Assembly: GCA_003450735.1 (NCBI GenBank)
Contig: DMEZ01000013.1
Location: forward strand, 1-61,410
Length of the DNA: 61,410 bases
Source: Elusimicrobiota bacterium
GTDB taxonomy: Bacteria > Elusimicrobiota > Elusimicrobia > UBA1565
Direction of reading: 5' to 3'
In this document: positions 15,557 through 60,267 of the stretch, piece after piece
Layout: every line of letters starts with the position of its first letter
Numbering within the stretch: position 1 is the stretch's first letter
Program-made: the position numbers and the translations under genes
The notes under the pieces: generated by a model
Databases searched by the model: none
The model's input: only the letters and a program-made list of their open reading frames with translations
What the model was told of the DNA's origin: nothing

Positions 15557-16344
15557 TTCGTCTTCAAGTCCTTCAGGTCCCAGCCGTAGAACCAGCTCAG
15601 GGAGAACCGCAAGGTCTTGACCGTCCGATGGAGCTGAGGATAGGTCTCCCAGCAGTATTCCGAGCCGACGTCGAAATACTTGCCCTTGAAGACCGCGGCG
15701 AGGGAGGGCCCGTGCACGTCGTAGTACTGCCGGTTCTTGGAGCGCAGGCGCCAGTCATAGGACGCGTAGGTGTGGAACATCCAGCCCCAGCCGAGCGCCG
15801 CCCAGTCCACACCCTGCCGGACCCAGCCCTGCGAGCCGGAGCCTTCCTCGCCGTGGAGATCGTAGGTCATCTTGCCCCAGGTGGAGAGCGGAAGGGCGAG
15901 CGGGGCGCGGGAGCCCAGGCGGGGCTTCCCGGTCCACTTGGAGACGTCCCAGGAGCTGAACCAGCTGCCGAAGAGGGAATAGTTGTTGTCGTCAAGGGGG
16001 AGGTCGGGATAGCGCAGCCATGCGAACTCCGCTCCGGCGGTGAGGGGCCCTTTCGCGAGCGAAGCGATCAAGGACGGCCCGTAGGTGTTGTAGTAGGTCT
16101 TGTTCTTGTTGCGCACGCGCCAGTTGTACGCGGCGTAGGTGTCCATGTCCACGTCCCCTTTGAACCGGACCCAGCGCACTCCCTGCCTGGCCCAGCCCTG
16201 CACGCCGGTGCCTTCCGTGTCGTCGGAGCCGCGCTTAAGGCTGCCCCAGGTGGAGCCGGGGTAGCCCTCGGGGGAGTAGGTCTCGGAGCCCGCCGGAGCG
16301 GACGCGAAGACGAGGAGCGTCAAAACCGCGGTTCGAAGCCTCAT
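15553..16344 (-). CDS. Secreted W/Y-rich protein with an internal tandem duplication (two ~115-aa repeats)
   Basis: Signal peptide MRLRTAVLTLLVFASAPAGS. Repeat 1 GVQGWARQGVRW...YAAYNWRVRNKNKTYYNTYGPSL matches repeat 2 GSQGWVRQGVDW...YASYDWRLRSKNRQYYDVHGPSL. ATGA overlaps at both ends place it in the bcs operon. Confidence 0.5.
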   Translation of the reverse strand: MRLRTAVLTLLVFASAPAGSETYSPEGYPGSTWGSLKRGSDDTEGTGVQGWARQGVRWVRFKGDVDMDTYAAYNWRVRNKNKTYYNTYGPSLIASLAKGPLTAGAEFAWLRYPDLPLDDNNYSLFGSWFSSWDVSKWTGKPRLGSRAPLALPLSTWGKMTYDLHGEEGSGSQGWVRQGVDWAALGWGWMFHTYASYDWRLRSKNRQYYDVHGPSLAAVFKGKYFDVGSEYCWETYPQLHRTVKTLRFSLSWFYGWDLKDLKTK

Positions 16345-18134: not shown

Positions 18135-18140
18135 GGCCCT

Positions 18141-20306
18141 CTACTTGCCCGTGATCCGCTTCTTCCTGTACTTGTTCAGGAAGTAGAACAGCGCCAGGCT
18201 GAGGGCGACGACGACGAGGGCCAGCAGGGCGTAATACAGCCACGGATGCGCGTACAGGTACGCATCCATCTTCGAGATCGGGCCGGCCTTCCCAGCGAAA
18301 TACTTCCTCCCGATGCTCACGGCGATCATGTTCTTCTCGGGGTCGTTGAGGTCGAGCAGGACGAGGTCGCCTTTCAGGTTCGCCTGCACGCTGTACTTCA
18401 TGAGGGCGAGGGAGAGGGCCCGGACTTCCTTGGGAGTGCGGGCGGTCAGCAGGACGACGCTGTGCCCTTCGCCGTAGGGTGATTGGAACTCCATCACCGC
18501 GCCGGTGTTCGTGCTCAGCCCGCTGACCTGCCGGCTGAACGCGAACTGCGATTCGTCCGCCCAGCCCTGCACGACGGGGTAGGGGAACGACATCTCCTTG
18601 GTCAGCGCGAGGGGCGCCTTCTCGCGAATCCCGGCGGGCAGGCTGTCGATGTCGCCGATGATCATGAGCTCGCCGTCGTATCTCTTGGGCGGCTGGGTGA
18701 TGAACTGGATCTCCAGGAGCGGGTGGCCGTTCTTCTGGGTGATCGAGCCCAGGAGGTTCAGCGCGGCCTCGATGCCCTCCCGGCCCGTGTTCGCCAGGTA
18801 GACCCTGGCGCCGTGCCCGTCGGGCCAGCGGGTGATGGGGAACCCGTTGAGCATGAAGAGCTCCAGGCGCGGCATGTCCACGTAGTGCGGCATGGGCGGG
18901 AAGCGGATCGTGGAGACGTCCATGACGGTCAGGAACAGGTTCTGGGTCTGGAAATACTCGCAGTTCTTGCCGATGGAAGGCGTCAGGACGGGCTCCAGCC
19001 GCAGGACATTGCTCCCCGGCTTGAAGAGGTAGGTGGGGATGTCCAGCATGTAGCCTTCGACGAGGCCGCCCTTCTCGTCGTTGAGGTGGATCCCGCGCAG
19101 GAGCTGGCCGTTCAGAGACAGGTTCACGACCGAGTCGGAGCGCCCGGCGGCGCCGTAGGAGTAGCTCAGCGACAGCTTGGCATAGAGGTTCTGCTTGATG
19201 AGGAAATCCGGGGGCAGGCGGAAGCTCAGCTCCGCCATGCTGGAGTTGATGCCCTTGAAGGTGCGGGTGGGGAAGTTCAGGGACTTGAAGGTGTAGGTCT
19301 TGTCCGCCTTGATGACCTCCTTGCCGCCGTAGAGCGGGATGTCCGGCATCTTGATCCCCGTCACGGTCATCTCGTCCATCTCCGGGAACGGCGCGGACAT
19401 GATGGCGAAGGTCTCGGCGGCGAGCTTCAGGTGGTCCTTGTTCAGGCCCGATACGACGAGCAGGGCATGGTAGGGGTCGCTGAGGCCCTCCCGCACCTGC
19501 CGGACGGGCAACGGCATGATCTTCAGGAACGGCCCCTTGACCCCCGCTTTGGCGTCGTACCCCGCCGCCTCCAGGACCCTGCCCGCGAAATCCGCGTCCC
19601 CGATGAGGATGTTGTCGTAGCCGGGCACGATCTCCCGCGACACGGCGAAGACGACTTCCCGATAATCGAACCTCATGGCGACGCCGGAGGCGATGATCCC
19701 GGCGATGGAGATGGTTTCCGCGGAGCTGTCGGGCATGACGATGACGACCTCGCCGCGGGGGGTCAGCTTGGGGTCGAAGAGGAAATTCGTGACCGCGGAC
19801 AGCCTCAGGGGGACCCGTTCGAGGGCATACTCGATCTCGAGGACCGCGTCGTCGTCGCCCAGCTTGAGCGTGGTCCAAAGCTCGGGCTGGCACGGGAATT
19901 CGCAGCCCATGGTGTAATGCTGGTGAGCGATGAAACTCAGGTCGTTGTAGCCCGGCTTGAACAGCTTCGCTGGCAGGTCCACCTTCATCGCCCCTTCGGG
20001 GGCCAGCGGGTTCAGGTTCCTCTGCGCGACCGCCTCCCCGTTGAACCTCACGATCAGGCGCGAGTTGGCGGCCAGGAGGGCGGTGGAGTTGACGAAGCCG
20101 AAGGAAAGCGACGCCTTCTTGACCTTCCAGCGCTCCGGGACAGGCAGGGACACCCCGTATTCGGCGGCCGTGCATTTGAGGTCGTAGCGCGTGGCCGAAC
20201 TGACCTTGTAGAGCGGGATCCGGATGGTCTCGGAGTGCGCCGCCTCGAGGCCTGCCGACGAGAGCAGGGCGCACGCCAGCATCGCGGAGGCGAAGGGGCG
20301 TCTCAT
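18141..20306 (-). CDS. bcsB: Cellulose synthase subunit BcsB-like (periplasmic, C-terminal TM anchor)
   Basis: Signal peptide MRRPFASAMLACALLSSAGLEA. Large periplasmic protein with a single C-terminal TM helix (YYALLALVVVALSLALFYFL), the topology expected of BcsB. Located in the bcsA operon. Confidence 0.6.
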   Translation of the reverse strand: MRRPFASAMLACALLSSAGLEAAHSETIRIPLYKVSSATRYDLKCTAAEYGVSLPVPERWKVKKASLSFGFVNSTALLAANSRLIVRFNGEAVAQRNLNPLAPEGAMKVDLPAKLFKPGYNDLSFIAHQHYTMGCEFPCQPELWTTLKLGDDDAVLEIEYALERVPLRLSAVTNFLFDPKLTPRGEVVIVMPDSSAETISIAGIIASGVAMRFDYREVVFAVSREIVPGYDNILIGDADFAGRVLEAAGYDAKAGVKGPFLKIMPLPVRQVREGLSDPYHALLVVSGLNKDHLKLAAETFAIMSAPFPEMDEMTVTGIKMPDIPLYGGKEVIKADKTYTFKSLNFPTRTFKGINSSMAELSFRLPPDFLIKQNLYAKLSLSYSYGAAGRSDSVVNLSLNGQLLRGIHLNDEKGGLVEGYMLDIPTYLFKPGSNVLRLEPVLTPSIGKNCEYFQTQNLFLTVMDVSTIRFPPMPHYVDMPRLELFMLNGFPITRWPDGHGARVYLANTGREGIEAALNLLGSITQKNGHPLLEIQFITQPPKRYDGELMIIGDIDSLPAGIREKAPLALTKEMSFPYPVVQGWADESQFAFSRQVSGLSTNTGAVMEFQSPYGEGHSVVLLTARTPKEVRALSLALMKYSVQANLKGDLVLLDLNDPEKNMIAVSIGRKYFAGKAGPISKMDAYLYAHPWLYYALLALVVVALSLALFYFLNKYRKKRITGK

Positions 20307-20322
20307 GGAGCGCGTGATTCTA

Positions 20323-21282
20323 TCAAAAGTAATTGTAATAGCCCATCCATAGATTCTCGAAGAACCCGCACTGCAGGTCGTTGAGGAGGCCCGCCCGGAC
20401 CTGTTCCGCGATCTCGTGCTCCGCATGGCATGCCCCCGCGCCGGCGTGGCCGCCTCCGCCGTACCTCTTCATGATGCTACCGATGTCCAGGGGGCAGGTC
20501 CTGTCGAGGACGGATTTTCCCGCCGCGAAGAACGCCCGGCCGCTCTTCCCGGTCGAGGAGACGTGCATGGACACGTTGCACTCGGGGAACAGGGCGTAAG
20601 TCATGAACTTGTTTCCCGGGACGATCCGCTCCTCCTGCCTCATGTCGGTGAGGACGAGGTTGGAGTGCACCGACGCGCATCTCAGGATCTGGCCCTTGTA
20701 CTCGTCGATGCACGCGAAATAGAGCTCCAGCCTCTCCTCCACGTCCGGGATGCTCAGGAGCTCCCATACGGTGCGGCGCTTCGCCTCGTCCATCAGCTCG
20801 ACGATGAGCTCGTCGTGGGACGCACGGAACCTCTTGAACTGCTCCAGGCCCGTCCTCGTGTCGATCAGGTAGCTCAGGAGGGTCCAGCCCGTCGGATACA
20901 GGATCTCCTCGCTCGCGATCCGGGCGCTGAAGCCCTTGTCGACCGCGTCGAGGATGTCGTCGTGGATGCCCGCGAACCGCTCCGCTCCGTAATGGTTGAA
21001 GATCACCCTCGCCGTGGAGGGCGCCCGGGTGTCGACCTTCAGATTGTGCTTGTCGACCGCCGGCTTGTGCGCGGAGGGATAGTGGTCGAAGGCCAGGTGG
21101 GCGTCGTCCTGGTACGGGAGCCCCGCCGTGATGTCGCCGGCCGTGACCTTGAACTTCCCGCTCTCGACGTCCTTCGGGTGGACGAAGGCGACGCTCTCGA
21201 GGAGGCCCAGCTCCTTGAGGAGCATGCCGCAGACCAGCCCGTCGAAATCGCTCTTGGTGACGAGCCGGTATCTTCCGCCCAA
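20323..21282 (-). CDS. DHH/DHHA1-family phosphoesterase-like protein (NrnA-like), with the DHH motif degenerate to DHY
   Basis: Motif I DFDG. FDHY sits in the place of DHH. DHHA1 signature GGGGHAGAGA. Inserted between bcsA and bcsB. Confidence 0.45.
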   Translation of the reverse strand: MGGRYRLVTKSDFDGLVCGMLLKELGLLESVAFVHPKDVESGKFKVTAGDITAGLPYQDDAHLAFDHYPSAHKPAVDKHNLKVDTRAPSTARVIFNHYGAERFAGIHDDILDAVDKGFSARIASEEILYPTGWTLLSYLIDTRTGLEQFKRFRASHDELIVELMDEAKRRTVWELLSIPDVEERLELYFACIDEYKGQILRCASVHSNLVLTDMRQEERIVPGNKFMTYALFPECNVSMHVSSTGKSGRAFFAAGKSVLDRTCPLDIGSIMKRYGGGGHAGAGACHAEHEIAEQVRAGLLNDLQCGFFENLWMGYYNYF

Positions 21283-21283
21283 G

Positions 21284-23557
21284 CTAGGCCTCCGCCCTCG
21301 CCCAGAGGCGGTCGACGTAGCCCGCGAGGCGGTTCGAGTGGAGCTTGACGTGGTCCATCGAGGGGACGAGGATGAACTTGAGCACCGCGACGTAGAACAC
21401 CCGCAAGCCCATGGCGCTCGACTTGAGGAGGAAGAGCAGGATCCACACGGGGTTGGCCGGCTTGGTCTTCTGCTCCCAGAAATCCGCCCACCGCTGGCTG
21501 TCGCCGAAGACGAACTCGACGGCCTCCATGCGCTGCTTCTCGTCGCTCAGGATGAACTCGCAGCCGCAGGCCCAGGTTGTCCCCCTGCGGACCTGCCGCT
21601 GGACACGCGCCTCGATCCTGAATCTCTTGCCGTGGCTGTTCCGGGTCTCGAGGATGAGGTGCTCGAGGGGCGCCAGCTCGTCGGCCAGCTCGAAGGAGAG
21701 CCCGACGCCCGACATGGAGATGTCGTCCATCTGCGCTTCCAGCGCCTTGCCCAGCCTGGGCAGGGTGAGATGCGCCGTGCCTTTCGCCCACATCCGGTGG
21801 TGCCGGCGCACCTGCTTGCGCTCGAAGAACGCCCCGAACGACGAGAGCGCCAGCAGGAGGTTCACCAAGCACCACACGAAGGTGATCGTCGTGATGTCCC
21901 GGTAGATCGGGTACGTGTACCACTTGATCGCCGCGGCCGGGACGGCGACGATGAGCACCCCGGTCAGCAGGAGGAAGGGCAGGGCGAACCCGCTCAGGAA
22001 GTCGCTCTCCAGGCTCTTCCCCTTCGGCGTCACCTTGAAGGACGGCTTCCTCGGGTTCAGGAAGACGGACAGGACCACGGGGATCAGGAACAAAGACTGG
22101 ATGCCCTCGAAGAACTCCGAGAAGAAGGGCCAGCGGAACCGCCCGTAGAGGAACCCCGTCAAAACCATGGACCCCAGCACGTGCGGGAGCGCGTAGGCCA
22201 AAACCTGGGGCACGGAGGCGAAGAAGACCCTCAAATCCAGGAGCAGGAACGCCGCCGGCGCGACGTAGAAGATGACCCTCGACGCCCCGAAGAACCAGTA
22301 GAAGCAGCTGTTGAAGTAGCAGAGCTTCTGGTAGAGCTTCAGGCCTTTCGCGAACAGCGGGTTGTTCAGGACGAAGATCTGGGTCATCCCCTGGGCCCAG
22401 CGGCTCTTCTGCACGATCAGGTCGTCGAACGTCTCCGGGGAAAGGCCGCAGACCATGGGCCGCGGGATGTAGACGCTCTTATAGCCCCGCTGGTGCAGGG
22501 CCACGGCGGTCTCGCAGTCCTCGGTGATGGTCTCGCCGCAGACGCCCCCGATCTCCTCGAGGCAGCTCCGCCTCAGCAGCGCCGCCGAGCCGCAGAAATA
22601 GCTCGAGTTCCACATGTCGAGGCCCGGGTGGATGCCGCGGTAGAACATGTCGTTCTCGCTGGGCGCGTCCTTGAAGATCGCCATGTTCTTCTCGATCGGG
22701 TTCGGGTTGATGAAGAAGTGCGGCGTCTGCACGAACGCGACCTTCTCGTCTTTCAGGAACCAGCCCGCGGTGTTCTTCAGGATGTCCCTCACGGGGACGT
22801 GGTCGCAGTCCAGGATGAGCACCAGGTCGGCGCTCGTGTGCCCCAGCGCGTGGCTGAGGTTCCCGGCCTTGGCCCTGAGATTCTTCTCGCGCGTGATGTA
22901 GCCGATGCCGTGCCTCTCGGCCAGCCCCTTCAGGGCGTAGTACCTCTCCCAGGCCTGGGGCCCGGTCTTCGGGTCGCACCGCTTCGCGACGGTGGCCCCG
23001 TCGTCGAGGATGTGGATCTTCAGCTTGTTTTTTGGGTAATCGATGTTCAGGGCGGCCAGGGCCGTGAGCTTCACGATGCCGATCGGCTCGCTGTAGGTCG
23101 GGATGAGCACGTCCACGGAAGGGTAGCTGGACGTGTCCGCGGGCAGCGGCATGATCTTGTTCTCGAGCGGCCAGATGCTCGTGAAGATGCCGAGCAGGTG
23201 GACGCTGATGGCGTACATCTCGGCGAGGTAGAGGGCCATCATGGCCAGGGTGTCCGCCGGCCCCGTATAGACCAGGGTCTCGGTCGTCCTCCAGACCACG
23301 TAGCGGAGGGTCAGGAAGGAGGCCAGGACGATGAAGAGGATCCTCAGGGGGGGCTTCTTGACCCTGTCGATGGGCTTGAGGAGGAAAAGGACGGCGAGGG
23401 AGCCCCAGCCGACGACGTACTGGCTGCTGAGCTCCAGGTGCAGCTGCGCGAGATGGTAGAAGAGATAGAGCGCGGCGGCGAGGAACGCGTACGAGAAGCC
23501 CGGGATGACGCCGGGATGCTTCAGCAGGAAGTCCTTCAACGAGCCGGCGGACGTCAA
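21284..23557 (-). CDS. bcsA: Cellulose synthase catalytic subunit BcsA (GT2) with C-terminal PilZ domain
   Basis: GT2 motifs D,D,D (ILDDG, LDCDH), TED, QKSRWAQG (QxxRW). PilZ motifs RRHHR and DISMSGVGL. TTG start at 23557 overlaps the cyclase stop (TTGA). The N-terminal 70 aa of the longer ORF look non-coding. Confidence 0.9.
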   Translation of the reverse strand: MTSAGSLKDFLLKHPGVIPGFSYAFLAAALYLFYHLAQLHLELSSQYVVGWGSLAVLFLLKPIDRVKKPPLRILFIVLASFLTLRYVVWRTTETLVYTGPADTLAMMALYLAEMYAISVHLLGIFTSIWPLENKIMPLPADTSSYPSVDVLIPTYSEPIGIVKLTALAALNIDYPKNKLKIHILDDGATVAKRCDPKTGPQAWERYYALKGLAERHGIGYITREKNLRAKAGNLSHALGHTSADLVLILDCDHVPVRDILKNTAGWFLKDEKVAFVQTPHFFINPNPIEKNMAIFKDAPSENDMFYRGIHPGLDMWNSSYFCGSAALLRRSCLEEIGGVCGETITEDCETAVALHQRGYKSVYIPRPMVCGLSPETFDDLIVQKSRWAQGMTQIFVLNNPLFAKGLKLYQKLCYFNSCFYWFFGASRVIFYVAPAAFLLLDLRVFFASVPQVLAYALPHVLGSMVLTGFLYGRFRWPFFSEFFEGIQSLFLIPVVLSVFLNPRKPSFKVTPKGKSLESDFLSGFALPFLLLTGVLIVAVPAAAIKWYTYPIYRDITTITFVWCLVNLLLALSSFGAFFERKQVRRHHRMWAKGTAHLTLPRLGKALEAQMDDISMSGVGLSFELADELAPLEHLILETRNSHGKRFRIEARVQRQVRRGTTWACGCEFILSDEKQRMEAVEFVFGDSQRWADFWEQKTKPANPVWILLFLLKSSAMGLRVFYVAVLKFILVPSMDHVKLHSNRLAGYVDRLWARAEA

Positions 23558-24369
23558 TTCGTATCGCCCGTGATCGTTACGCTGTGCTCGGTCGTCCGCC
23601 TTTCCTCGTCGGAGCCTGAGCGGCCCAGCTTCCAGTAGGCCGCGGCCGCGAGGAGGATCGCGCCGGCCAGGGCCAGGAGGACCTTGATGCACAGCGGGCA
23701 CTTCTCTTGGACATCCTGGACCGGCTTCCTGGCGGAGAGGTCGCGCTGGATCTCGGTCTTGTTCCAATAGCCCTTGTAGAGCTTCATGGGCTCTTTCTTG
23801 CCCTTCAGCTCGACTTCCTTGGCGAAGCCGCAGTAGATCTCGGCGCGGTCCGAGAGCGCGTTGTAGGCCTCCTCCGAGAGGAGGATCTCGCCGGGGTTCG
23901 CCTGCGCCTCGATCCTGGACGAGACGTTCACGACGTCGCCGAAGATGTCGTTCTTCTCCACGATGCCGAGGCCCACGTGGATGCCGATGCGCATGAGGAT
24001 CGGGATCGTGAGCTTCTTCTCCAGGTTGAACGCGTCGATGCCCTTCTGGATCTCCGCGGCGGCCCGCAGGGCGCTCTGGGCGTTCTCGTAGTAGGACATC
24101 GTGCCGTCGCCCATCGTCTTGACGAGGATCCCGTCGTGCTTCTTGATGACCGGGAAAACGATGTCGAAGTGCTGTTTTATCAGCGTCCGGTGGGCGATGT
24201 CCCCGTGCGTCTCGGCGATGGCCGTGGAGCCCTTGAGATCGGTGAACATGACCGTGATGGTCTTCTGGAACCGGTCCTTGAACAGCTTGTCGAGGCGGGC
24301 GCGCTCCTCGATGATCTTGTCTACGTTCAAATCGTCTTCAGGATCTTCTTTCCGCTGTTCATCTGCCAT
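23554..24369 (-). CDS. Class III adenylate/guanylate cyclase (CHD) with a C-terminal transmembrane anchor
   Basis: Metal-binding Asps in FTDLKGST and KTMGDG. GIHVGLGIV and NVSSRIE motifs. The Lys before TMGDG suggests ATP specificity. C-terminal TM helix VLLALAGAILLAAAAYW. Confidence 0.75.
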   Translation of the reverse strand: MADEQRKEDPEDDLNVDKIIEERARLDKLFKDRFQKTITVMFTDLKGSTAIAETHGDIAHRTLIKQHFDIVFPVIKKHDGILVKTMGDGTMSYYENAQSALRAAAEIQKGIDAFNLEKKLTIPILMRIGIHVGLGIVEKNDIFGDVVNVSSRIEAQANPGEILLSEEAYNALSDRAEIYCGFAKEVELKGKKEPMKLYKGYWNKTEIQRDLSARKPVQDVQEKCPLCIKVLLALAGAILLAAAAYWKLGRSGSDEERRTTEHSVTITGDTN

Positions 24370-24399
24370 GCGTCAGGCCTCGCGCGACATGTATAACAT

Positions 24400-29105: not shown

Positions 29106-31112
29106 TCACGTCCCAAGCCGGACGAGCGCCCGCGCCCGCGCATCGGTCGCCGACAGGAAGCTCGAGTGGCTCCACGACAGGTCCCGGCCCGAGGCCGGCG
29201 CGCCGGTCTCCTTGTCGAACTGCTCGGCCAGCTCGCCGGAGGGGGGGGTCGCGCGCTTGAGCGTCCTCAGCAGGTCGTCTCCGCGCAGGACGAGGCCCCG
29301 CAGCAGGCTCTCCCGCTCGGCCAGGGCCTCATCGCGCAGCGCTCCTCCTCCCGCCCGCCTCAGCGCCCTCGAGAGGAACTCCCGGTTGAGCGGGGTCACG
29401 GGGATGGACTCCTTTTTCGACAGCAGTTCCGCGGCCCGGTAGTGGAGCTCCGCGTAGGCCATCGTGGCGAACACCCACGGGTTCCCGCCAAAGTAGGTGT
29501 CCCCGTTGTAGCGCCCCATCGCCACGCCCTCGTCTTCGGCGCGCTTCTTGTTGAACGGGTATAGGGACTCGAAGAGGTCTTCCAGCTTCACCGCGGTGGA
29601 CAGCACGCGCTCGTCGAGGGGGGACGTCCGCCCCTCCGTCAGGCCCCCATGCAGGGCCGCGAGCAGCACCGCGACGTCCAGCCCCTCGCCGGGCTTCTCC
29701 TTCACCGTCCCGTCCCAGTAGGTCCGGGGCCCCAGCGCGAAGGCATAGTAGCCCTTGTCCTCCAGCCAGAGCTTGTCCAGCTCCGCGTACAGCCGCCTCG
29801 AGGCCTCGACACGGCCGCCCGCCCTCAGGGCCGCGGCCTGCACCGCGCGGGTATAGTAGTCGTGCCCGCGGTACTCCTCCCACAGGTCGAAGCCCTCGCG
29901 CTCCGTGTCCGAGGCGATGAAGTCCAGGTCGGTCTTCGCCGCCTCGGGGTCCACGCGCAGAAGGGCCAGCGCCCGCAGGGCCGGCCCGTCGTACTGCGGC
30001 CTCGACCAGCGCAAAAAGTCTCGGGAGCCGTCGGCATTGAAGCGCGGCTCGCCCAGGTCGGAGGCTTGCAGGGAGCGGGAGAACGCGGCGAAATCCTTCA
30101 CCTGCTGGTCGTGCCCCAGCGCCGCCAGCTCGGACATGACCAAGGCCGAGTCCCGCACCCAGTGGAAGAAATAGTCCGGCTCCGGGGGCTTGCCCGCCGG
30201 GGCCGCGACCACGGAGCCCGGCTTCGGGGTGATGCTCGCCCGGATCTTCCCGCCTTCGATCTTCAGGCCGGCCTTGCGGGCGGGGTCGGCGTGGACCTCA
30301 TCGAACTCTTTCTCCACGACGGTCCCCGTCGAAGACACGTTGCGCAGGAGGCGCTCGAGCGAGAGCTTCCTCTGAGCGGCGATCCAGGTTTCGAGCCCGA
30401 AATGGGCGAAGATCCGGTCGAAGGCCTCCCGCTCCTTCTCAGGATGGAACTGCACCGCCAGGATGGAGCCCTTCTCCATCGCCTCGACGACGCCGTCGTC
30501 CGCCGCGGCGGCGACCGTGAAGCCCTCCGCCGGCCGCTTGACCGCCTGATGGTGGTACGAGTTCACCCGGATGCGGTCCTTTCCCAGAAGCGCCCGCAGC
30601 AGGCTCCCTTTCTTCAGGTCGACTTCGTGGTAGCAAGGCTTGGACTTCCCGTCCTCGCGGACGCGGTGGACGATCTTGCCGACCTGGGAGGGGAGGTCCT
30701 GGTAGAGGCTGCCCCCGGCGTAGACGTTGAGCAGCTGGTGGCCCTTGCAGATGCCGAGGATGGGGAGCTTCCGCTCCAGGCTCCTCTTGACCGCGGCGAA
30801 CTCGTAGAGGTCGAAGCCCTTGTCGACCGTCTCGAGCTTCGGGTGCGGCTCCTCGCCGTAGAGGTCGGGCGAGACGTCGTCGCCTCCCGGCACCAGCAGG
30901 CCGTCGAGGGAGTCGAGGCGCGCCTCGGTCTCGCTGGAGGCCAGCGCCTGGAAGAGCGGGACGATCTCGGCCCCGTGGGCCTTCAGCGCCTTGGAGTAGT
31001 AGGGGAGCTTGTCCTCCGCGGCCAGCGCTTGCTCCTCAGTGTAAAGCAGTCCGATCCTGGGAGGGGCGGCCTCCGCGAGCGCGGCCGCGGCGAGGAGGGC
31101 GAGCCAGGCCAT
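29106..31112 (-). CDS. Secreted fusion protein: class I glutamine amidotransferase-like (peptidase C26) domain + GH15 glucoamylase-like (alpha/alpha)6 domain
   Basis: Signal peptide MAWLALLAAAALAEA. GATase1 triad motifs ILGICKGHQLLN and VQFHPE. GH15 motifs HWVRDSALV and GFDLWEE. Confidence 0.65.
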   Translation of the reverse strand: MAWLALLAAAALAEAAPPRIGLLYTEEQALAAEDKLPYYSKALKAHGAEIVPLFQALASSETEARLDSLDGLLVPGGDDVSPDLYGEEPHPKLETVDKGFDLYEFAAVKRSLERKLPILGICKGHQLLNVYAGGSLYQDLPSQVGKIVHRVREDGKSKPCYHEVDLKKGSLLRALLGKDRIRVNSYHHQAVKRPAEGFTVAAAADDGVVEAMEKGSILAVQFHPEKEREAFDRIFAHFGLETWIAAQRKLSLERLLRNVSSTGTVVEKEFDEVHADPARKAGLKIEGGKIRASITPKPGSVVAAPAGKPPEPDYFFHWVRDSALVMSELAALGHDQQVKDFAAFSRSLQASDLGEPRFNADGSRDFLRWSRPQYDGPALRALALLRVDPEAAKTDLDFIASDTEREGFDLWEEYRGHDYYTRAVQAAALRAGGRVEASRRLYAELDKLWLEDKGYYAFALGPRTYWDGTVKEKPGEGLDVAVLLAALHGGLTEGRTSPLDERVLSTAVKLEDLFESLYPFNKKRAEDEGVAMGRYNGDTYFGGNPWVFATMAYAELHYRAAELLSKKESIPVTPLNREFLSRALRRAGGGALRDEALAERESLLRGLVLRGDDLLRTLKRATPPSGELAEQFDKETGAPASGRDLSWSHSSFLSATDARARALVRLGT

Positions 31113-45142: not shown

Positions 45143-46393
45143 ATGCCCCTGAAAAGAAGCCGGAACGCCGACGCCGAAATCCGGGCCCTGCGGGCCCAGC
45201 TCGCCCGCGAGCGCTCCCAGAGCCGGCGCCGCGCGGAGCTCTTCGAGAAGGCCATCCAGACCAACGACCTGCGCGAGGTGGGCGAGGAGATGTACCGCTA
45301 CTTCTTCAGCCACTTCGGCGTCTACAAGGGCGACATCACCATCCTGACCGACTACGACGAGCGCGAGTTCTACGACCTCGTCGGCTGGACGCCCCGCCAG
45401 GACACGCCCTCCCCCGAGGAGCTGCTGCGCCTGGCGACCCAGCACTGCGAGTACCTGCGCAGCCTCGTCGAGGAGCAGATCTTCATCGGCTACAGCCCCG
45501 ACGAGGAGCGGGAGATCAAGGAATCCTACCTGGTCGAGCAGAGCATGCTCGAGAGCATGGTCACCAAGGCGCCCCGCCTCGTCAACGACGTGCTCTGTGA
45601 GCTCTCGGCCAAGGAGATCGAGGAAGCCAAGAAGCAGCAGACCCGCTCCTGGCTGAACTGGACGGTGCTCCACCCGGACAACTCGAAGCTGCTGGCCAAG
45701 ATGCACATGTCCTTCCGCAAGGCCCGCAAGCGGACCCTCGCCGAACTCACGCGCCAGCTGCGCCCCTTCGAGAACCTGCTCGGCTACCGCATCCTGCACA
45801 CCCGGGACTTCAAGCGGGTCAAGTACCTCTCCGAGCGCGACGCCCTGACGGGGCTCTACCTGCGCCCCACGCTGGCCAAGCGCTGGGACTACGCCGTGGA
45901 CCACGGCTCGCGCGGCCGCCGGAAGGCCGCCGTCAGCGTGGCCATGCTGGACCTGGACCTCTTCAAGCGCTTCAACGACAACTACGGGCACGAGGTGGGA
46001 GACCGGGTCCTGCGGCACTTCGCGCAGTCGGTGCAGTCGGCCCTGCGCGGGACCGACGTGGTGGGCCGCTACGGCGGCGAGGAGTTCGTGGCCCTCTTCC
46101 CCGGCGCCGACACGGGCGGGGTGCTCACCATCCTCAAGCGCATCCACGAGCGCATCAAGGACGTCAACTTCCTGCCGCCCGCGGCCTGGGTCGCGGGCGC
46201 CACGCCCGAGCACCTGCGCTTCAGCGCCGGCGTCTTCACCCTGGAGCCCGGCCGCAAGGACGCGAAGCCCAGCTTCGACGAGGCCATCAAGGCCGCCGAC
46301 GAGCTGCTCCTCTACTGCAAGCAGTCCGGCCGCAACGCGGCCGCCTACCGGGACTCGGCCGGCCGCATCCGGCGCTTCCGCTTCGAAGACTAG
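45143..46393 (+). CDS. Diguanylate cyclase (GGDEF domain) with an N-terminal domain of unknown function
   Basis: GGEEF motif RYGGEEF. GGDEF signatures FKRFNDNYGH and DALTGL. 10 nt downstream of the flotillin gene. Confidence 0.8.
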   Translation: MPLKRSRNADAEIRALRAQLARERSQSRRRAELFEKAIQTNDLREVGEEMYRYFFSHFGVYKGDITILTDYDEREFYDLVGWTPRQDTPSPEELLRLATQHCEYLRSLVEEQIFIGYSPDEEREIKESYLVEQSMLESMVTKAPRLVNDVLCELSAKEIEEAKKQQTRSWLNWTVLHPDNSKLLAKMHMSFRKARKRTLAELTRQLRPFENLLGYRILHTRDFKRVKYLSERDALTGLYLRPTLAKRWDYAVDHGSRGRRKAAVSVAMLDLDLFKRFNDNYGHEVGDRVLRHFAQSVQSALRGTDVVGRYGGEEFVALFPGADTGGVLTILKRIHERIKDVNFLPPAAWVAGATPEHLRFSAGVFTLEPGRKDAKPSFDEAIKAADELLLYCKQSGRNAAAYRDSAGRIRRFRFED

Positions 46394-55998: not shown

Positions 55999-56574
55999 CT
56001 AGGCCGACTCTCGGCCTTCGATGTAAGCGATGACCTCGCCGGGCGTCTTCTTCTTCAGGAGGTCGTCGATGAAGGCCGGCTGGAAGAGAGCCGAGACCCC
56101 GCGCAGGAGGTAGAGGTGCTGCTGGAACATCTCCTGGCGCATGGGCGTGAAGAAGACGCACATCGCCCGGATGACGATATCGGGTTGCTTGGGGTCCGCC
56201 AGGCCCTGGGGGATGAGCCCGAAGACGGCCGAGATGGAGTCCAGGCCCTCGATGCGGGCGTGGGGGATGGAAAGGCCGGTGTCCAGGGTGGTGCTCATGC
56301 CCTGCTCGCGTTCGAGGATCTTGGAGAGCAGCCGCTTGGACTCGCCGAGCTTCTTGATCTTGCACAGCCGCTCGATGAGCAGTTCGATGAGCTGGTCCTT
56401 GCTCTTTCCCGCCGGCAGCCAAAGCACGAGTTCGTCCGACAGGAGGTTCCCAAGACGGATGCCGTTCGAGGAACCTGTCGGATTAGGAGAGGAGGGCTTG
56501 CTTGAGCCGGACGGCGCGGCGGCCTTACCGTCCTTTTTGCGGAACCAGCCGAGAGTCATTAACCCTCCTATCAT
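55999..56574 (-). CDS. PTS EIIA-2 (fructose/Ntr-type, PtsN-like) domain protein with an N-terminal low-complexity extension
   Basis: Phosphorylation-site-like SIPHARIEGL. EIIA-2 fold length after a ~40-aa Ser/Pro-rich N-terminus. Confidence 0.6.
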   Translation of the reverse strand: MIGGLMTLGWFRKKDGKAAAPSGSSKPSSPNPTGSSNGIRLGNLLSDELVLWLPAGKSKDQLIELLIERLCKIKKLGESKRLLSKILEREQGMSTTLDTGLSIPHARIEGLDSISAVFGLIPQGLADPKQPDIVIRAMCVFFTPMRQEMFQQHLYLLRGVSALFQPAFIDDLLKKKTPGEVIAYIEGRESA

Positions 56575-56615
56575 AACAATCCTGGAGTCTTTCTGTCAAT
56601 ATTCCGCTTTGATTT

Positions 56616-58172
56616 ATGCTGAAATTTCCGATAAAATGCGGGTTCATGGCCTCTCTTTCCGGCCAGACCGTGCTCCTCACCCGCCCCAAGCGCCAGTCCA
56701 GCGGGTTGGCTCGTTTGCTCGCGCGCCTGGGTGCCCGGAGCGTCCCGGTCCCGCTCATCCGCACGCGCGCCCCGCGCAGTTGGAAGCCGCTCGACGCGGC
56801 CCTGCGCGCCCTCGAAAGCTTCGATGCGGTGGCCTTCACGAGCGCCAACGGCGTGGAGGGCTTCTTCCAGAGGGCTCGCCGGGTCTTCAAGAGAACTCCT
56901 CGCGCCCCCCGGAGGATCTACGCCATCGGCCCGGCCACCGCCCAAGCCCTGGCCGGGCACGGCTGGCGGGCTCTCAGCGTCCCGGAGGACCACGAAGGAG
57001 GGGCCTTGGCCCGCCGCATGGGGAAGGTGAAGGGGATGAAGATCCTCATCCCCCGGGCCCAGACCGCTCGGGAGGAACTGCCGGCCCTCCTCCGGAAGGC
57101 GGGAGCCGACGTCCGCATCGCGCCCGCCTACCGGACGGAGCCTGATCCGGCAGGCCGCCGGGCCCTGCGCCGCTCATCAAGCGCCGACTGGGTGACCTTC
57201 ACTTCGGTCTCGACCGTCAGGGCGTTCTTCGACGCCCTGGGGGAGACGGAGGCCCGACGCTTCCTCTCCCGGGCCCGAGCCGCCGCCATCGGTCCAGTCA
57301 CGGCGGCCGAACTCAGGAGCCGCGGCGTCGAACCGGCGGCCCAGGCCCGGCCCTCCACCTCGGAGGGTCTCGCCCAGGCTCTCGCCGACGCCGCCGACCT
57401 CAGGGGCACGCTCGTCGCCGCCCTAAGGGAAGCCGGCGCCGTCCTGCGGGAGCGCTACGGGAAGGTGCATGTCCGCTACAAAGGGCGCGCGAACCTGGTC
57501 ACCGAGGCCGACCACGCCAGCGAGCAGCGCATCCTCGACGTCATCCTCTCCCGCTATCCGAGCCACGATTTTCTGACGGAAGAGCGCGAGCCCCGCTCGA
57601 CCGGCTCGGATTTCGTCTGGGTGGTGGACCCGCTCGACGGCACCACGAACTACGCGCACGGCTTCCCGGTCTTCTGCGTCTCCATCGGGCTCCTGCACCG
57701 AGGACGCCCGCTCCTGTCGGGAGTCTACGACCCCTGCCGGAACGAGATGTTCCTGGCCGAGCGGGGACGCGGGGCGATGCTCAACGGCAAGCCCCTGCGT
57801 GTCTCGAGAGCGGGGAACGTGTCCGAATCCCTCCTGCTGACCGGCTTCGCCTACGACCGGGCCGCGCGGGCCGACTACCTCATCCGCTTTTATAAGGAAT
57901 TCATGCGCCGCTGCCACGATGTGCGCCGTTCGGGCTCCGCCGCGCTGGACCTGGCGTGGACGGCCGCCGGCAGGGTGGACGGCTACTGGGAGTTCTCGCT
58001 CAAGCCCTGGGACGTCGCGGCCGGCTGGCTGCTGGTCAGCGAGGCGGGGGGGGAGGTCACCGACTTCTCCGGCAAGGCCTGGGACGGCCTGAAACTCCTT
58101 GGACGCGAGACCCTCGCCAGCAACGGCCGAATCCACGCGCAGATGCTCCGCCTCATCCGCCGCCACCTCTAA
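56616..58172 (+). CDS. Fusion protein: uroporphyrinogen-III synthase (HemD) domain + inositol monophosphatase-family (SuhB/IMPase) domain
   Basis: N-terminal ~250 aa HemD-like (VLLTRP...). C-terminal IMPase motifs TEADHASEQ, WVVDPLDGTTNY, WDVAAG. Alternative start at 56646. Confidence 0.65.
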   Translation: MLKFPIKCGFMASLSGQTVLLTRPKRQSSGLARLLARLGARSVPVPLIRTRAPRSWKPLDAALRALESFDAVAFTSANGVEGFFQRARRVFKRTPRAPRRIYAIGPATAQALAGHGWRALSVPEDHEGGALARRMGKVKGMKILIPRAQTAREELPALLRKAGADVRIAPAYRTEPDPAGRRALRRSSSADWVTFTSVSTVRAFFDALGETEARRFLSRARAAAIGPVTAAELRSRGVEPAAQARPSTSEGLAQALADAADLRGTLVAALREAGAVLRERYGKVHVRYKGRANLVTEADHASEQRILDVILSRYPSHDFLTEEREPRSTGSDFVWVVDPLDGTTNYAHGFPVFCVSIGLLHRGRPLLSGVYDPCRNEMFLAERGRGAMLNGKPLRVSRAGNVSESLLLTGFAYDRAARADYLIRFYKEFMRRCHDVRRSGSAALDLAWTAAGRVDGYWEFSLKPWDVAAGWLLVSEAGGEVTDFSGKAWDGLKLLGRETLASNGRIHAQMLRLIRRHL

Positions 58173-58297
58173 ACGCTGGTGCCTGAAACGCTGGTGCCTG
58201 TCATTACACTCCGCACACCATACACCTGGCGCCACAGGCCCGCATCAAGACCAAAGTGTAATGACCCGCAGGTGTAATGACAGGCACCTACTCCTAA
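58171..58297. repeat. Composite palindromic intergenic element: 15-bp tandem duplication, then a 17-bp perfect inverted repeat (GGTGCCTGTCATTACAC / GTGTAATGACAGGCACC) separated by 62 nt
   Basis: Tandem AAACGCTGGTGCCTG x2 at 58171-58200. IR arms at 58193-58209 and 58272-58288. GTGTAATGAC duplicated at 58257-58266. Confidence 0.85.
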
Positions 58298-59263
58298 CTA
58301 GAAGCGGGCGCCGATGGCGATGCGATGGGTGGTGCCGAGGTCGCCGAAGGGCACCCACGCGTAGTCCAGCCGCACGCGGCGCAGATCCACCCCGAGCCCC
58401 GCCGACGCCCCGGAGAAGCCTTCCAGGTCGCGCGCATAGCGCATGTTGTAGCCGCCGCGCACGCTGGCTCCGAAGCCCTCTCCGAAAGGCTGGTTGTACT
58501 CCGCGCCGAGGCAGAAGTACGGGTCCGAATCCACCGGCAGGTTCGCGTCCAGCAGGCCGTTGAAGCGAGGGCTGATGTGCCAGAGCGCACCGACCGCGGC
58601 CTTGAAGGGGAGCGGGTCGGACATCGAGCCGACCTTGATGGGGGGGCCGAAGTTCAGGATCGCGAGCCCGAGGTCGAGCGGGCTCTCGCCCAGGTCGGTG
58701 ATGCGCTCGACCTGGAGTCCGAAGTCCAGGGCGAAGGTGGAGCCCGAGGCGTCGTCGATCTCCGAACGGATGTACTTCAGGCTCGAGCCCAGCCGCACGC
58801 GCTTCAACTGCCGGGCGTAGCCGAACGCCAAGGCCAGATCGTTCGGCGCGAACTCCGAGGTCGGGTCGCCCACGGTGCTGTAGCCTTGGATGGCGGACTG
58901 GGAGAAGTAGACGAAGGACGCCCCGAGGACGCCCTTCTGCTCCGGAAGGGGGTGGGCGTAGGCGAGCGCGCCGGAATACATGGTCTCAAGGAGGTTGCTG
59001 TAGCCCATGGCTGCGTCGGGCCGGCCGGCAGCCTCCAGGCGGGAGAGCCCCGCGGGGTTCCAGAACATCGCCTCGGAGTTGTCCACGGCGGCGGCGCTGG
59101 CGCCTCCGAGAGAAGGGATGCGGCCGCCCGCCGGCAGCTTGAGAAAGGCCGCGCCGGTCGTGCCGGTAGCCTTGTCGGTGAAGGGGTCTTCCGGGAAGAC
59201 GCCCGCATGCGCCTGGACGGCCAACAGCGACGCGAAGAGGAGTACGGAGCTCAGACGGGCCAA
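58298..59263 (-). CDS. Outer-membrane beta-barrel protein (PorV/UPF0164-like, tentative)
   Basis: Signal peptide MARLSSVLLFASLLAVQAHA. Amphipathic beta-strand pattern. C-terminal ...IAIGARF aromatic terminus. Confidence 0.4.
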   Translation of the reverse strand: MARLSSVLLFASLLAVQAHAGVFPEDPFTDKATGTTGAAFLKLPAGGRIPSLGGASAAAVDNSEAMFWNPAGLSRLEAAGRPDAAMGYSNLLETMYSGALAYAHPLPEQKGVLGASFVYFSQSAIQGYSTVGDPTSEFAPNDLALAFGYARQLKRVRLGSSLKYIRSEIDDASGSTFALDFGLQVERITDLGESPLDLGLAILNFGPPIKVGSMSDPLPFKAAVGALWHISPRFNGLLDANLPVDSDPYFCLGAEYNQPFGEGFGASVRGGYNMRYARDLEGFSGASAGLGVDLRRVRLDYAWVPFGDLGTTHRIAIGARF

Positions 59264-60267
59264 ACCGGACCCCGGCCCTTCGGCTTTGGGATCGACTCAT
59301 CCGGCAGCGCCTCGTCCGCCGCGGGGGCGGCTGCCGGGGCGGGGGCAGGAGCGGGCGCCTGGACGTCCAGCTGGATGACAGGCTGAGCTTCAACGACGGG
59401 CGGCGGCACAGCGGGAGCCGGCTCGGCGGCGGGCGGAGGCGCAGCCGGCACGGCCGCCATCGCCTGGGCCAGCGCCTGCTCGGGAGTGGGGGCGGGGACG
59501 ATCTTGCCTGGGATCGGGATGCGGACAGGTTCGCGCTTCGTCGCGGGGAGCGGGGCGGCCGCGGGAGCCTGCTGCGGCGAGACGGCCTGCGGCTTCGGCG
59601 CCGCGGCGGGCGCGGGCGCGGCGGAGGGCTGGAGGACGACCGGCTTCGGAGCCGGAGCTGGGGCGGCCGTCCGAGGCTGCGCGGCCGGCTTCGAAGCCGG
59701 AGCCGGCGTGCCATGCGCTTCGACCTGTTCGTGGAGATCCCCCTGCAGTTCGGCGAGCCTCTTGAGCAGGGCGTCGAACTGGTTGTCGTGGCGGGAGACC
59801 ATCCCGTTGAGGTCGCCTCGGAGCTGGTGGATCTCCTTCTCGAAATGCTCCATCTGCATCTTCAGGTTCTGCAGGTAGACGACCGCCGGGCTCAGGCCCA
59901 GGGTGGTGACCTTGACGTCCGGCTTCTCCAGCGGCGAAGCCGAAGGGAGCGCGGCTTTGGATTCTGCGGCCGGGACCGGCGCCGGGGCGGGAGCGGGCGC
60001 AGGGGGGAGGGCGGCGGCGGGCTTGGGCGCCTCCGCCGGCTTCTCCTGGGGAACTTCGGCGACGAGCTTCGCGTCTTCTTTTTTCGGCGCTACGACCTTG
60101 ATCGGCTCGACGGTCTCCTCCGCTTCCGGCTCGATGGGAGGCTCGCCGGAATCCGTTTCGGCGACCACCTCGCGGTAGCGCTTGAGGAGAAAAGCGAAAA
60201 GACCGCCCCCGACGCCGAGGCCGGCCAGATACGCCCAAACCCAGTGGTCGAGAAAGATGGCTCCCAT
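59251..60267 (-). CDS. Membrane-anchored Pro/Ala-rich protein with a central coiled-coil segment (hypothetical)
   Basis: N-terminal TM WVWAYLAGLGVGGGLFAFLL. Long PAPAPAP low-complexity tracts. Central heptad-like region LQNLKMQMEHFEKEIHQLRGDL. Confidence 0.35.
   Translation of the reverse strand: MGAIFLDHWVWAYLAGLGVGGGLFAFLLKRYREVVAETDSGEPPIEPEAEETVEPIKVVAPKKEDAKLVAEVPQEKPAEAPKPAAALPPAPAPAPAPVPAAESKAALPSASPLEKPDVKVTTLGLSPAVVYLQNLKMQMEHFEKEIHQLRGDLNGMVSRHDNQFDALLKRLAELQGDLHEQVEAHGTPAPASKPAAQPRTAAPAPAPKPVVLQPSAAPAPAAAPKPQAVSPQQAPAAAPLPATKREPVRIPIPGKIVPAPTPEQALAQAMAAVPAAPPPAAEPAPAVPPPVVEAQPVIQLDVQAPAPAPAPAAAPAADEALPDESIPKPKGRGPVWPV

Follow-up and report, generated by a model that had tools for sequence, protein, structure and literature searches.

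A reading frame joining uroporphyrinogen-III synthase (HemD) to an IMPase-family phosphatase in Elusimicrobia

The fusion gene and its surroundings

The window analysed here, the whole stretch of 61,410 nucleotides, comes from a groundwater Elusimicrobia genome. On its forward strand, positions 56616..58172 hold a complete open reading frame (ORF) of 518 codons plus stop, running from an ATG to a TAA, whose product matches HAH05391.1 (locus tag DCM05_02520, from an Elusimicrobia bacterium MAG) identically. A reading-frame check reveals no internal stop between 56616 and 58172, including the region 57380-57420 where one had been suspected, and bears out the preliminary description of a single uninterrupted ORF. 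It encodes a uroporphyrinogen-III synthase (HemD or HEM4) domain (aa 31-253, 56706..57374, forward strand) followed by a phosphatase domain of the IMPase/SuhB family (aa 263-516, 57402..58163, forward strand), and GC content at codon position 3 is alike in the two halves (0.87 and 0.90, respectively). The domain junction, aa 254-262 (ALADAADLR, forward strand, 57375..57401), was delimited from an alignment of orthologs, the structure model and a codon scan. In the alignment it is the shortest linker among the fusion orthologs, the others having 10-14 additional residues, and in the model a helix (249-260) is followed directly by a second one (262-280). ATG, GTG and TTG are all absent in frame between codons 240 and 283, and the phosphatase half therefore cannot start alone.

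The second in-frame ATG (Met11, 56646..56648, forward strand) is probably the true start of the protein, which would then be 508 aa long. Most orthologs begin at that alignment column, residues 1-10 are modelled as disordered (pLDDT ~34), and the first ten codons fall within AT-rich sequence that resembles a promoter, with a -10 element ending at 56637. This element belongs to a sigma-70-like candidate, recognised by consensus match only (TTGATT-17-TAAAAT, 56609..56637, forward strand), in a 41-bp AT-rich divergent intergenic region. A divergent promoter-like match on the reverse strand (TTGACA-18-TATGAT, 56570..56599; 11/12 positions, with an extended TG) faces the operon PTS_EIIA_2 (PtsN-like)-def-fmt. 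Two promoter-like sites were found in all, against a mean of 0.0 in shuffled sequences. The divergently transcribed upstream genes follow the order PTS_EIIA_2-def-fmt-PASTA-rpe-rpsP, and so on, which is the same at three related loci (L003, L007/L008 and L009); the fusion gene adjoins a translation-related operon (def, fmt, rpsP, trmD, rplS). A search for further heme-pathway genes (hemA/L/B/C/E) across the 61-kb window and the ~20-kb contexts of eight relatives gave none.

Directly 3' of the stop codon, a repeat search of the region 58171..58288 (no strand assigned) revealed a 15-nt tandem direct repeat at 58171-58200 and a 17-nt perfect inverted repeat (58193-58209 / 58272-58288). From its sequence, this region may be a putative bidirectional terminator hairpin common to the fusion gene and to a convergent PorV-like gene. 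Such a gene lies downstream, in convergent orientation, in both L001/L002 and L007/L008.

The two domains

Profile searches, matches to solved structures, and a structure model with its fold search agree that a HemD domain and an IMPase-family phosphatase share the one ORF, as had been proposed. The HemD half matches the HEM4 profile over its full length (Pfam PF02602, E 6.2e-55; 186.3 bits against a cut-off of 27.5; profile positions 3-230 of 231), a feature shared with stand-alone HemD enzymes (PF02602, EC 4.2.1.75) such as those of Pseudomonas syringae (3re1) and human (UROS, 1jr2), and it also matches the solved uroporphyrinogen-III synthase (U3S) structures 3re1, 4es6, 3mw8, 3p9z and 1jr2 by sequence. 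Like these enzymes, it forms a domain of about 250 aa that keeps the FTS, IGPxT, Tyr172, FTSxS and second IGPxT elements. The residues invariant in 29 aligned fusion orthologs are S76 (FTS), G105 and T108 (IGPxT), Y172, S197 and S199 (FTSxS) and I225-G226-P227. The Tyr172 codon is located at 57129..57131 on the forward strand, and the residue aligns with the tyrosine at chain position 189 of 1jr2, which we take to be Tyr168 of human UROS on the assumption of a 21-residue tag. In U3S structures, the equivalent of this tyrosine and the Ser/Thr residues of the paired TS and GPxT motifs have a role in the active-site cleft. Uroporphyrinogen-III synthase closes hydroxymethylbilane to uroporphyrinogen III, from which heme and other tetrapyrroles all derive.

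The fusion differs from stand-alone HemD in that a 256-aa phosphatase domain follows covalently and in that its HemD domain scores under every NCBIfam HemD equivalog cut-off (best NF004593, 97.3 bits against 275). HemD is a fast-diverging family, and this shortfall limits the confidence with which the half can be named but does not exclude activity. AlphaFold models the half as alternating strand-helix elements with a pLDDT of ~90 over aa 18-260. The 50 Foldseek matches listed were all IMPases, the query being the whole model with both domains; a putative two-lobed alpha/beta fold of this half draws its support from the sequence matches to the five U3S structures. Outside the Elusimicrobia clade, the sequences closest to the HemD half belong to ordinary HemD and CobA-HemD enzymes and are 40-45% identical to it.

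The IMPase half likewise matches its profile over the full length (Pfam PF00459, Inositol_P, E 1.8e-72; 244.5 bits against a cut-off of 27; positions 6-268 of 271) and retrieves the PDB entries 5zhh (E 1.4e-63) and E. coli SuhB 6tqn (E 3e-58). The preliminary description listed EADHASE, WVVDPLDGT and WDVAAG as intact metal-binding motifs. All three strings occur in the translation (aa 297-303, 335-343 and 465-470), and DPLDGT and WDVAAG are such motifs, but EADHASE is not the metal-binding acidic motif, which is instead the E322-E323 pair in LTEERE. This pair (codons at 57579..57584, forward strand) corresponds in the SuhB/IMPase alignment to the catalytic Glu of IMPases. The DPxDGT metal and phosphate motif (D338-P-L-D341-G-T343) is encoded at 57627..57644, its D, P, D, G and T being invariant, and the WDxAAG motif (W465-D466-V-A-A-G470), which includes the third metal-binding Asp and is itself invariant, at 58008..58025, both on the forward strand. 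In the 29 fusion orthologs, E322, E323, D338, D341, G342, T343, W465, D466 and G470 are all invariant, and the motifs line up with those of 5zhh and 6tqn.

The AlphaFold model of the whole fusion has a mean pLDDT of 87.9 and a pTM of 0.71. Its C-terminal half resembles SuhB structures from P. aeruginosa and E. coli in Foldseek (target-normalised TM-score 0.86-0.90, E 4e-29 to 1e-27), which supports the five-layer alpha-beta-alpha-beta-alpha fold of IMPases. Bacterial IMPases of known structure (PF00459; E. coli SuhB 2qfl/6tqn, Anabaena 5zhh) are 40-44% identical to the fusion in the Foldseek alignments; the fusion keeps all their metal-binding and catalytic motifs and differs in bearing the N-terminal HemD domain. 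The half reaches none of the NCBIfam equivalog cut-offs: SuhB (208 bits against 332, a difference from the E. coli-type equivalog), HisN (156 against 275), FBPase/IMPase (122 against 264) and CysQ (93 against 229). Judged by sequence, it is closest to SuhB among these equivalogs, though below the cut-off. A sulfur-assimilation link combining siroheme with a CysQ-type PAP phosphatase was set aside on the SuhB and CysQ scores (208 and 93 bits).

Distribution and origin of the fusion

The same fusion recurs in other genomes. Three contigs, which come from JGI, ENA and a third source, encode the identical 518-aa protein, and about 31 further clusters (P0002-P0032), at 54-69% identity, bear both Pfam domains in frame and are from Elusimicrobia wherever named. 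The 29 aligned fusion orthologs are 55-71% identical overall. The HemD-IMPase architecture is nevertheless rare: across 1.84 billion representatives, searched exhaustively, only one more fusion cluster (P0121) came to light; in the other long IMPase-containing proteins of that search, the partner is a beta-lactamase, YCII, or none. Apparent fusions in Chloroflexota (L017, L037) and Clostridia (L069) were tblastn artefacts. These loci encode stand-alone IMPases whose upstream genes are unrelated (response regulator, ABC ATPase). A HemD profile HMM, applied to every ORF in the 94 fetched loci, detected hemD in Elusimicrobia loci only; in the ~78 loci from other phyla, there was none within 10 kb of the IMPase.

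An error in sequencing or assembly that erased a stop or frameshift between two genes could in principle produce such a frame. Sister genomes do carry the two genes one frame apart, so that a single-base error could mimic the fusion, and assemblies of the same organism differ by a frameshift elsewhere (rpe appears as 51 + 197 aa in one case and as 228 aa in the other). However, this explanation is extremely improbable: three contigs give the same 518-aa product, the ~31 additional clusters from many samples have an in-frame junction, every linker indel is a multiple of three in length, the fused proteins group together in one clade, and a separate IMPase would lack a start codon near the junction. 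Recurrence on three identical contigs and in ~31 orthologous clusters also answers the earlier concern about a hidden stop, and the assembly-artefact reading of the ORF can be regarded as effectively refuted.

HEM4 and Inositol_P are encoded by separate genes, overlapping by 4 bp, on four independent contigs from Elusimicrobia (L004/L005, L093, L094 and the P0285 contig); stop and start there read TTGA, GTGA or ATGA (NTGA). These split operons of sister Elusimicrobia have the same gene order as the fusion, with HemD 38-51% and IMPase ~60% identical to it, and differ in being two ORFs overlapping by 4 bp instead of one. They occupy the same chromosomal slot wherever the upstream flank is visible, that is, in three of the four contigs, L093 beginning too near its hemD. 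In a neighbour-joining tree of the IMPase domain, the fused proteins are monophyletic together with the 5'-truncated fragment P0033 (bootstrap 78/100). P0033 might be taken for a stand-alone IMPase, in which case monophyly falls to 0/100, but it is really a 5'-truncated fusion. The HemD-half tree is too noisy to recover the fused proteins as one clade (2/100 bootstraps), and the long-branch sequences P0010 and P0014 wander in it.

Since sister lineages hold split pairs with a 4-bp overlap and the IMPase tree contains one fused clade, a single fusion of a translationally coupled hemD-IMPase pair is the most likely origin. That the genes fused, and did not split, is itself inferred. The ancestral hemD and IMPase genes would have been neighbours overlapping stop-to-start by 4 bp (NTGA), and a small frame-restoring change at the overlap may have removed the stop, once, in one Elusimicrobia lineage.

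Possible roles and significance

Together, these observations make it likely that the protein is a genuine two-domain enzyme whose halves act independently and which stems from a single fusion of overlapping neighbour genes. The N-terminal half would have uroporphyrinogen-III synthase activity and the C-terminal half would be an IMPase/SuhB-family phosphatase that depends on Mg2+ and acts on sugar phosphates, most likely each with its own active site and made as a unit in one polypeptide. A possible benefit would be fixed 1:1 co-production or, perhaps, stabilisation of a monomeric HemD on a dimeric IMPase scaffold. That the lineage uses heme supports the role proposed for the HemD half: high-GC respiratory Elusimicrobia have cytochrome oxidases, with hemB/hemC/hemD scored 1 or P (Meheust et al., bioRxiv 10.1101/765248, Table S3). 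The genome GWA2_51_34 (L011), in which an IMPase occupies the same slot without hemD, is scored 0.

No metabolic link between the HemD and IMPase activities is evident. A real functional coupling of the "Rosetta stone" type, with the phosphatase and HemD serving one process in these bacteria, is rather unlikely. In such a case a so far unrecognised phosphorylated compound tied to tetrapyrrole metabolism might be the substrate of the phosphatase, or one domain might regulate the other. In its favour, 4-bp overlaps on the four diverged split-state contigs already coupled translation of the two genes before they fused, the pairing is clade-specific (as the ~78 loci from other phyla illustrate), and IMPase-family enzymes, which are promiscuous, have been drawn into cofactor pathways, as with PDB entry 9mmi, which is described as an enzyme of riboflavin synthesis. 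To our knowledge, however, no step from 5-aminolevulinate to heme or siroheme involves a phosphate ester. Moreover, cobalamin synthesis is scored absent in high-GC Elusimicrobia (Meheust et al., bioRxiv 10.1101/765248, Table S3), for which reason a cobalamin-phosphate phosphatase role was also set aside. In L011 the IMPase in this slot has a BadF/BadG-type ATPase as its coupled partner in place of HemD, so that the IMPase looks like a positional anchor whose partners can change, and adjacency conserved within one clade can be plain inheritance. That hemD and the IMPase gene have stayed paired while diverging deeply (HemD identity as low as 38%) could nonetheless reflect a functional link. It is distinctly unlikely that long-conserved coupling and later fusion mark a real biochemical or regulatory link of tetrapyrrole synthesis with the phosphatase. 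Examples of such a link would be a new cofactor-linked phosphatase substrate, or a SuhB-type factor that responds when the HemD fold binds a tetrapyrrole intermediate.

It is very unlikely that one half is no longer an enzyme, the HemD fold having become a ligand-binding or regulatory module, or the IMPase a dimerisation scaffold or Nus-type factor. SuhB acts non-enzymatically in rRNA antitermination complexes (6tqn and 6ib8 are among the best matches), the neighbouring operon is translation-related, and one cluster of orthologs (P0032) covers only the first two-thirds of the HEM4 profile. Against this, the catalysis-associated residues of both families are all invariant in 29 orthologs that are only 55-71% identical, which is what purifying selection on activity predicts, and the 40-45% identity of the HemD half to ordinary pathway HemDs is the usual distance between such enzymes.

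The view that the two chemistries are not normally linked is borne out by a survey of metabolic gene fusions, which for HemD contains only CobA-HemD (uroporphyrinogen-III methyltransferase/synthase) and HemC-HemD (porphobilinogen deaminase/synthase) (PMC4921024). In these, HemD is likewise joined to another enzyme, and some of the closest relatives of the HemD half outside the Elusimicrobia are CobA-HemD proteins. However, their partner performs an adjacent pathway step with an unstable intermediate in common (PMC4921024), whereas the partner in the HemD-IMPase fusion is a phosphatase without known tetrapyrrole substrate. Neither PF00590 nor a porphobilinogen deaminase domain is present in the fusion protein according to Pfam.

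The fusion does not appear to be annotated already as a bifunctional enzyme. Orthologs are named "hypothetical protein", "uroporphyrinogen-III synthase", "inositol monophosphatase family protein" or "myo-inositol-1(or 4)-monophosphatase", and no publication linking uroporphyrinogen III synthase, inositol monophosphatase and fusion was found in the literature searched. With one name per gene, one of the two functions is hidden each time, and heme-synthesis completeness in uncultured Elusimicrobia could therefore be scored "partial" from naming alone. If the halves are simply independent, the finding is ordinary. The fusion is a modest curiosity, relevant mainly to genome annotation. It does present both stages of a gene fusion side by side, with NTGA-overlapping genes in sister lineages and one ORF in a single derived clade, and the pairing offers a weak but testable hint that HemD and a SuhB-like phosphatase may gain from co-production.

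Architecture and authenticity of the fusion gene

The fusion gene (window 56616..58172, + strand) encodes a protein of 518 aa from an ATG start, and a direct codon check found no internal stop. Pfam assigns aa 31-253 to HEM4 (uroporphyrinogen-III synthase, HemD) over almost the entire profile (E 6.2e-55) and aa 263-516 to Inositol_P (E 1.8e-72). The same two families are retrieved by NCBIfam, with several HemD models for the N-terminus and a SuhB-type inositol-1-monophosphatase as the top phosphatase model; neither half reaches an equivalog cut-off. Among solved structures, the best matches are five uroporphyrinogen-III synthases (U3S) for the N-terminal half, and the Anabaena IMPase 5zhh (E 1.4e-63) and E. 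coli SuhB (E about 3e-58) for the C-terminal half. The preliminary description of a single uninterrupted ORF joining HemD to an IMPase-family phosphatase is thus borne out.

The annotated start codon is probably located 30 nt too far upstream, the likelier start being Met11 (ATG 56646), since the first residue of the orthologs falls in the alignment column of Met11, residues 1-10 have a pLDDT of about 34 in an AlphaFold2 model, and an AT-rich, promoter-like TTGATT-17-TAAAAT element extends into the first ten codons. A start at 56646 implies that the leaders of this gene and of its divergent neighbour are very short or absent.

The concern that an assembly error hides a stop codon can be dismissed. 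Three contigs of differing origin encode an identical protein; among them are one of 45 kb from JGI and one of 74 kb from ENA. Both Pfam domains also occur in 31 further clusters from the homologue search (P0002-P0032), assigned to Elusimicrobia in every case with a source name. They share 54-69% identity with the query, mostly across 92-98% of its length (86% for P0027, and just 49% for P0032). The junction is in frame throughout a 29-member alignment, in which linkers differ by whole codons and that of the window protein is the shortest. GC content at the third codon position is even (0.87 and 0.90 in the two halves), and codons 240-283 contain no ATG, GTG or TTG able to start a separate phosphatase.

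Catalytic residues and function

Overall identity within the fusion family is about 55-71%, and the signature residues of both enzyme families are unvarying in the 29 sequences: S76, G105, T108, Y172, S197, S199 and I225-G226-P227 in the HemD half, and E322, E323, D338, P339, D341, G342, T343, W465, D466 and A468-A469-G470 in the phosphatase half. The three strings initially described as intact metal-binding motifs (EADHASE, WVVDPLDGT, WDVAAG) are all present, but the metal-binding acidic motif is E322-E323 within LTEERE and not EADHASE. Y172 aligns with a Tyr at chain position 189 of the human uroporphyrinogen-III synthase structure 1jr2. Assuming a 21-residue tag, which the chain length suggests, this Tyr corresponds to Tyr168, a residue considered important in the U3S structural literature. 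The AlphaFold2 model, built from the same alignment, has a mean pLDDT of 87.9 and a pTM of 0.71, and its C-terminal half matches SuhB structures with target-normalised TM-scores of 0.86-0.90 (Foldseek). Helix 249-260 runs nearly straight into helix 262-280, so the two domains of the window protein are not joined by a long flexible linker.

Outside the clade, the HemD half is most closely related to ordinary HemD and CobA-HemD enzymes (40-45% identity). High-GC respiratory Elusimicrobia lineages possess cytochrome oxidases and alternative complex III, and their hemB/hemC/hemD are scored 1 or P, while uroporphyrinogen III synthesis is scored 0 in GWA2_51_34, where hemD is missing from the IMPase slot (Meheust et al., bioRxiv 10.1101/765248, Table S3). 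No remaining heme genes were found in the 61-kb window or the fetched flanks.

The protein is likely to be bifunctional, one polypeptide carrying two active sites that work independently: that of a uroporphyrinogen-III synthase for heme synthesis and that of a SuhB-like phosphatase dependent on Mg2+. The conserved coupling of hemD with IMPase could instead reflect a real functional link between the two activities. However, no step in tetrapyrrole synthesis is known to involve a phosphate ester, and hence there is no evident metabolic link between the halves, which makes this improbable. That one half has assumed a non-catalytic role appears more doubtful still. The bifunctional enzyme remains the preferred reading.

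Chromosomal setting and origin of the fusion

The fusion gene stands alone, divergent from a conserved operon (PTS_EIIA_2 (PtsN-like), def, fmt, PASTA protein, rpe, rpsP, KH protein, trmD, rplS, rnhB) and convergent with a PorV-like outer-membrane gene. The fused orthologs examined share this upstream gene order, and the PorV-like gene is seen again in the fused-ortholog locus L007/L008. In the same organism, rpe is called as two pieces of 51 and 197 aa in the JGI contig (L001 1458-2221) and as a single 228-aa gene in the ENA contig (L002 6281-6967); assembly differences of the frameshift type thus exist in these data, but the fusion gene is free of them.

At the fusion-gene stop codon, 15 nt are directly repeated in tandem (AAACGCTGGTGCCTG x2); next comes a perfect inverted repeat of 17 nt (58193-58209 / 58272-58288) with arms 62 nt apart and a second, partial arm at 58255-58270. 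This region (58171-58288), whose sequence recurs nowhere else in the window, could be a terminator acting in both directions or else a small variable element. The intergenic length past the fusion gene differs by 6 nt between the two assemblies, L001 and L002. There is a 13-nt overlap between the start of the PorV-like gene and the gene of a 338-aa Pro/Ala-rich protein without Pfam match (59251-60267, - strand). L007/L008 and the split-gene locus L004/L005 likewise have an unannotated protein (254-367 aa) at this place beside the PorV-like gene, a pattern suggestive of a conserved outer-membrane module of two genes. In two fused-ortholog loci, a giant multidomain polyketide/PUFA-synthase-like gene (>2500 aa; KS, AT, KR, DH; L003 14208-21551 and L007/L008 14173-21635) lies downstream of the fusion gene at a distance of about 2.5 kb; beyond the 3' end of the window, large proteins without Pfam hit are found instead (for example 1454 aa, L001 10309-14670).

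Elsewhere in the window are an unusual 668-aa fusion of glutamine amidotransferase/Peptidase_C26 with glucoamylase-type Glyco_hydro_15 (29106-31112, - strand) and a bacterial cellulose synthase cluster (~15550-24370, - strand) comprising a BcsA-like glycosyltransferase with PilZ domain, BcsB and BcsG. The cluster is flanked by guanylate-cyclase-type, GAF-HD, GAF-histidine-kinase and response-regulator genes, with a GGDEF gene farther away (45143-46393).

The closest stand-alone IMPase (P0034) and three of the closest stand-alone HemDs (P0275, P0283, P0285), all from sister Elusimicrobia, belong without exception to hemD + IMPase gene pairs with a 4-bp stop/start overlap (TTGA, GTGA or ATGA). 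Such NTGA overlaps are a classic signature of translational coupling. Three of the four pairs visibly occupy the chromosomal slot of the fusion gene; the fourth contig (L093) starts too near its hemD to show the upstream flank. In the GWA2_51_34 locus (L011 9063-10801), the partner overlapping the start of the same-slot IMPase by 4 bp is a BadF/BadG/BcrA/BcrD-family ATPase (302 aa) rather than hemD. The IMPase is therefore translationally coupled to differing upstream partners across Elusimicrobia lineages.

The fused proteins group as a single clade when the phosphatase half is analysed by neighbour joining (bootstrap 78/100, counting P0033 as a 5'-truncated fusion fragment). The split-state genes are placed just outside this clade in the BLOSUM62 distance tree, a grouping with little bootstrap support, and the sequences of the HemD half have diverged too far for a tree of that half to recover the fused clade. 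In the simplest history, IMPase would have been the positional anchor of the slot, hemD would have settled upstream of it as a translationally coupled gene in one lineage, and a small change within the NTGA overlap, restoring the frame, would have produced a single fusion. We infer from parsimony that the direction was fusion, not fission.

Distribution and significance

An exhaustive HMMER scan of 1.84 billion representatives at 50% identity returned, among the best 150 matches, one other fusion representative (P0121, 54% identical, both domains confirmed); all the remaining proteins among these 150 match one half of the query only. Apparent extended matches in Chloroflexota and Clostridia proved to be artefacts. 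A HemD profile HMM run against all ORFs detected no hemD within 10 kb in about 78 IMPase loci of other phyla. Rare IMPase fusions of other kinds occur elsewhere, with a beta-lactamase-family domain (P0220, 677 aa) or a YCII domain (P0231, 390 aa).

Documented HemD fusions, CobA-HemD and HemC-HemD, involve pathway neighbours (PMC4921024), whereas the partner here is an IMPase-family phosphatase, an architecture mentioned neither in that paper nor in the others found. Database labels of the fusion proteins comprise three differing single-function names, or hypothetical; nothing indicates an already annotated bifunctional enzyme, as had been considered at the outset. The protein is a new architecture made from two well-known enzymes and limited to one clade. 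The finding is real and of modest interest, its value lying mainly in annotation and evolution. An IMPase label can hide HemD, so that heme-pathway calls in Elusimicrobia MAGs may look partial, and the family offers a clean case of gene fusion out of overlapping genes.
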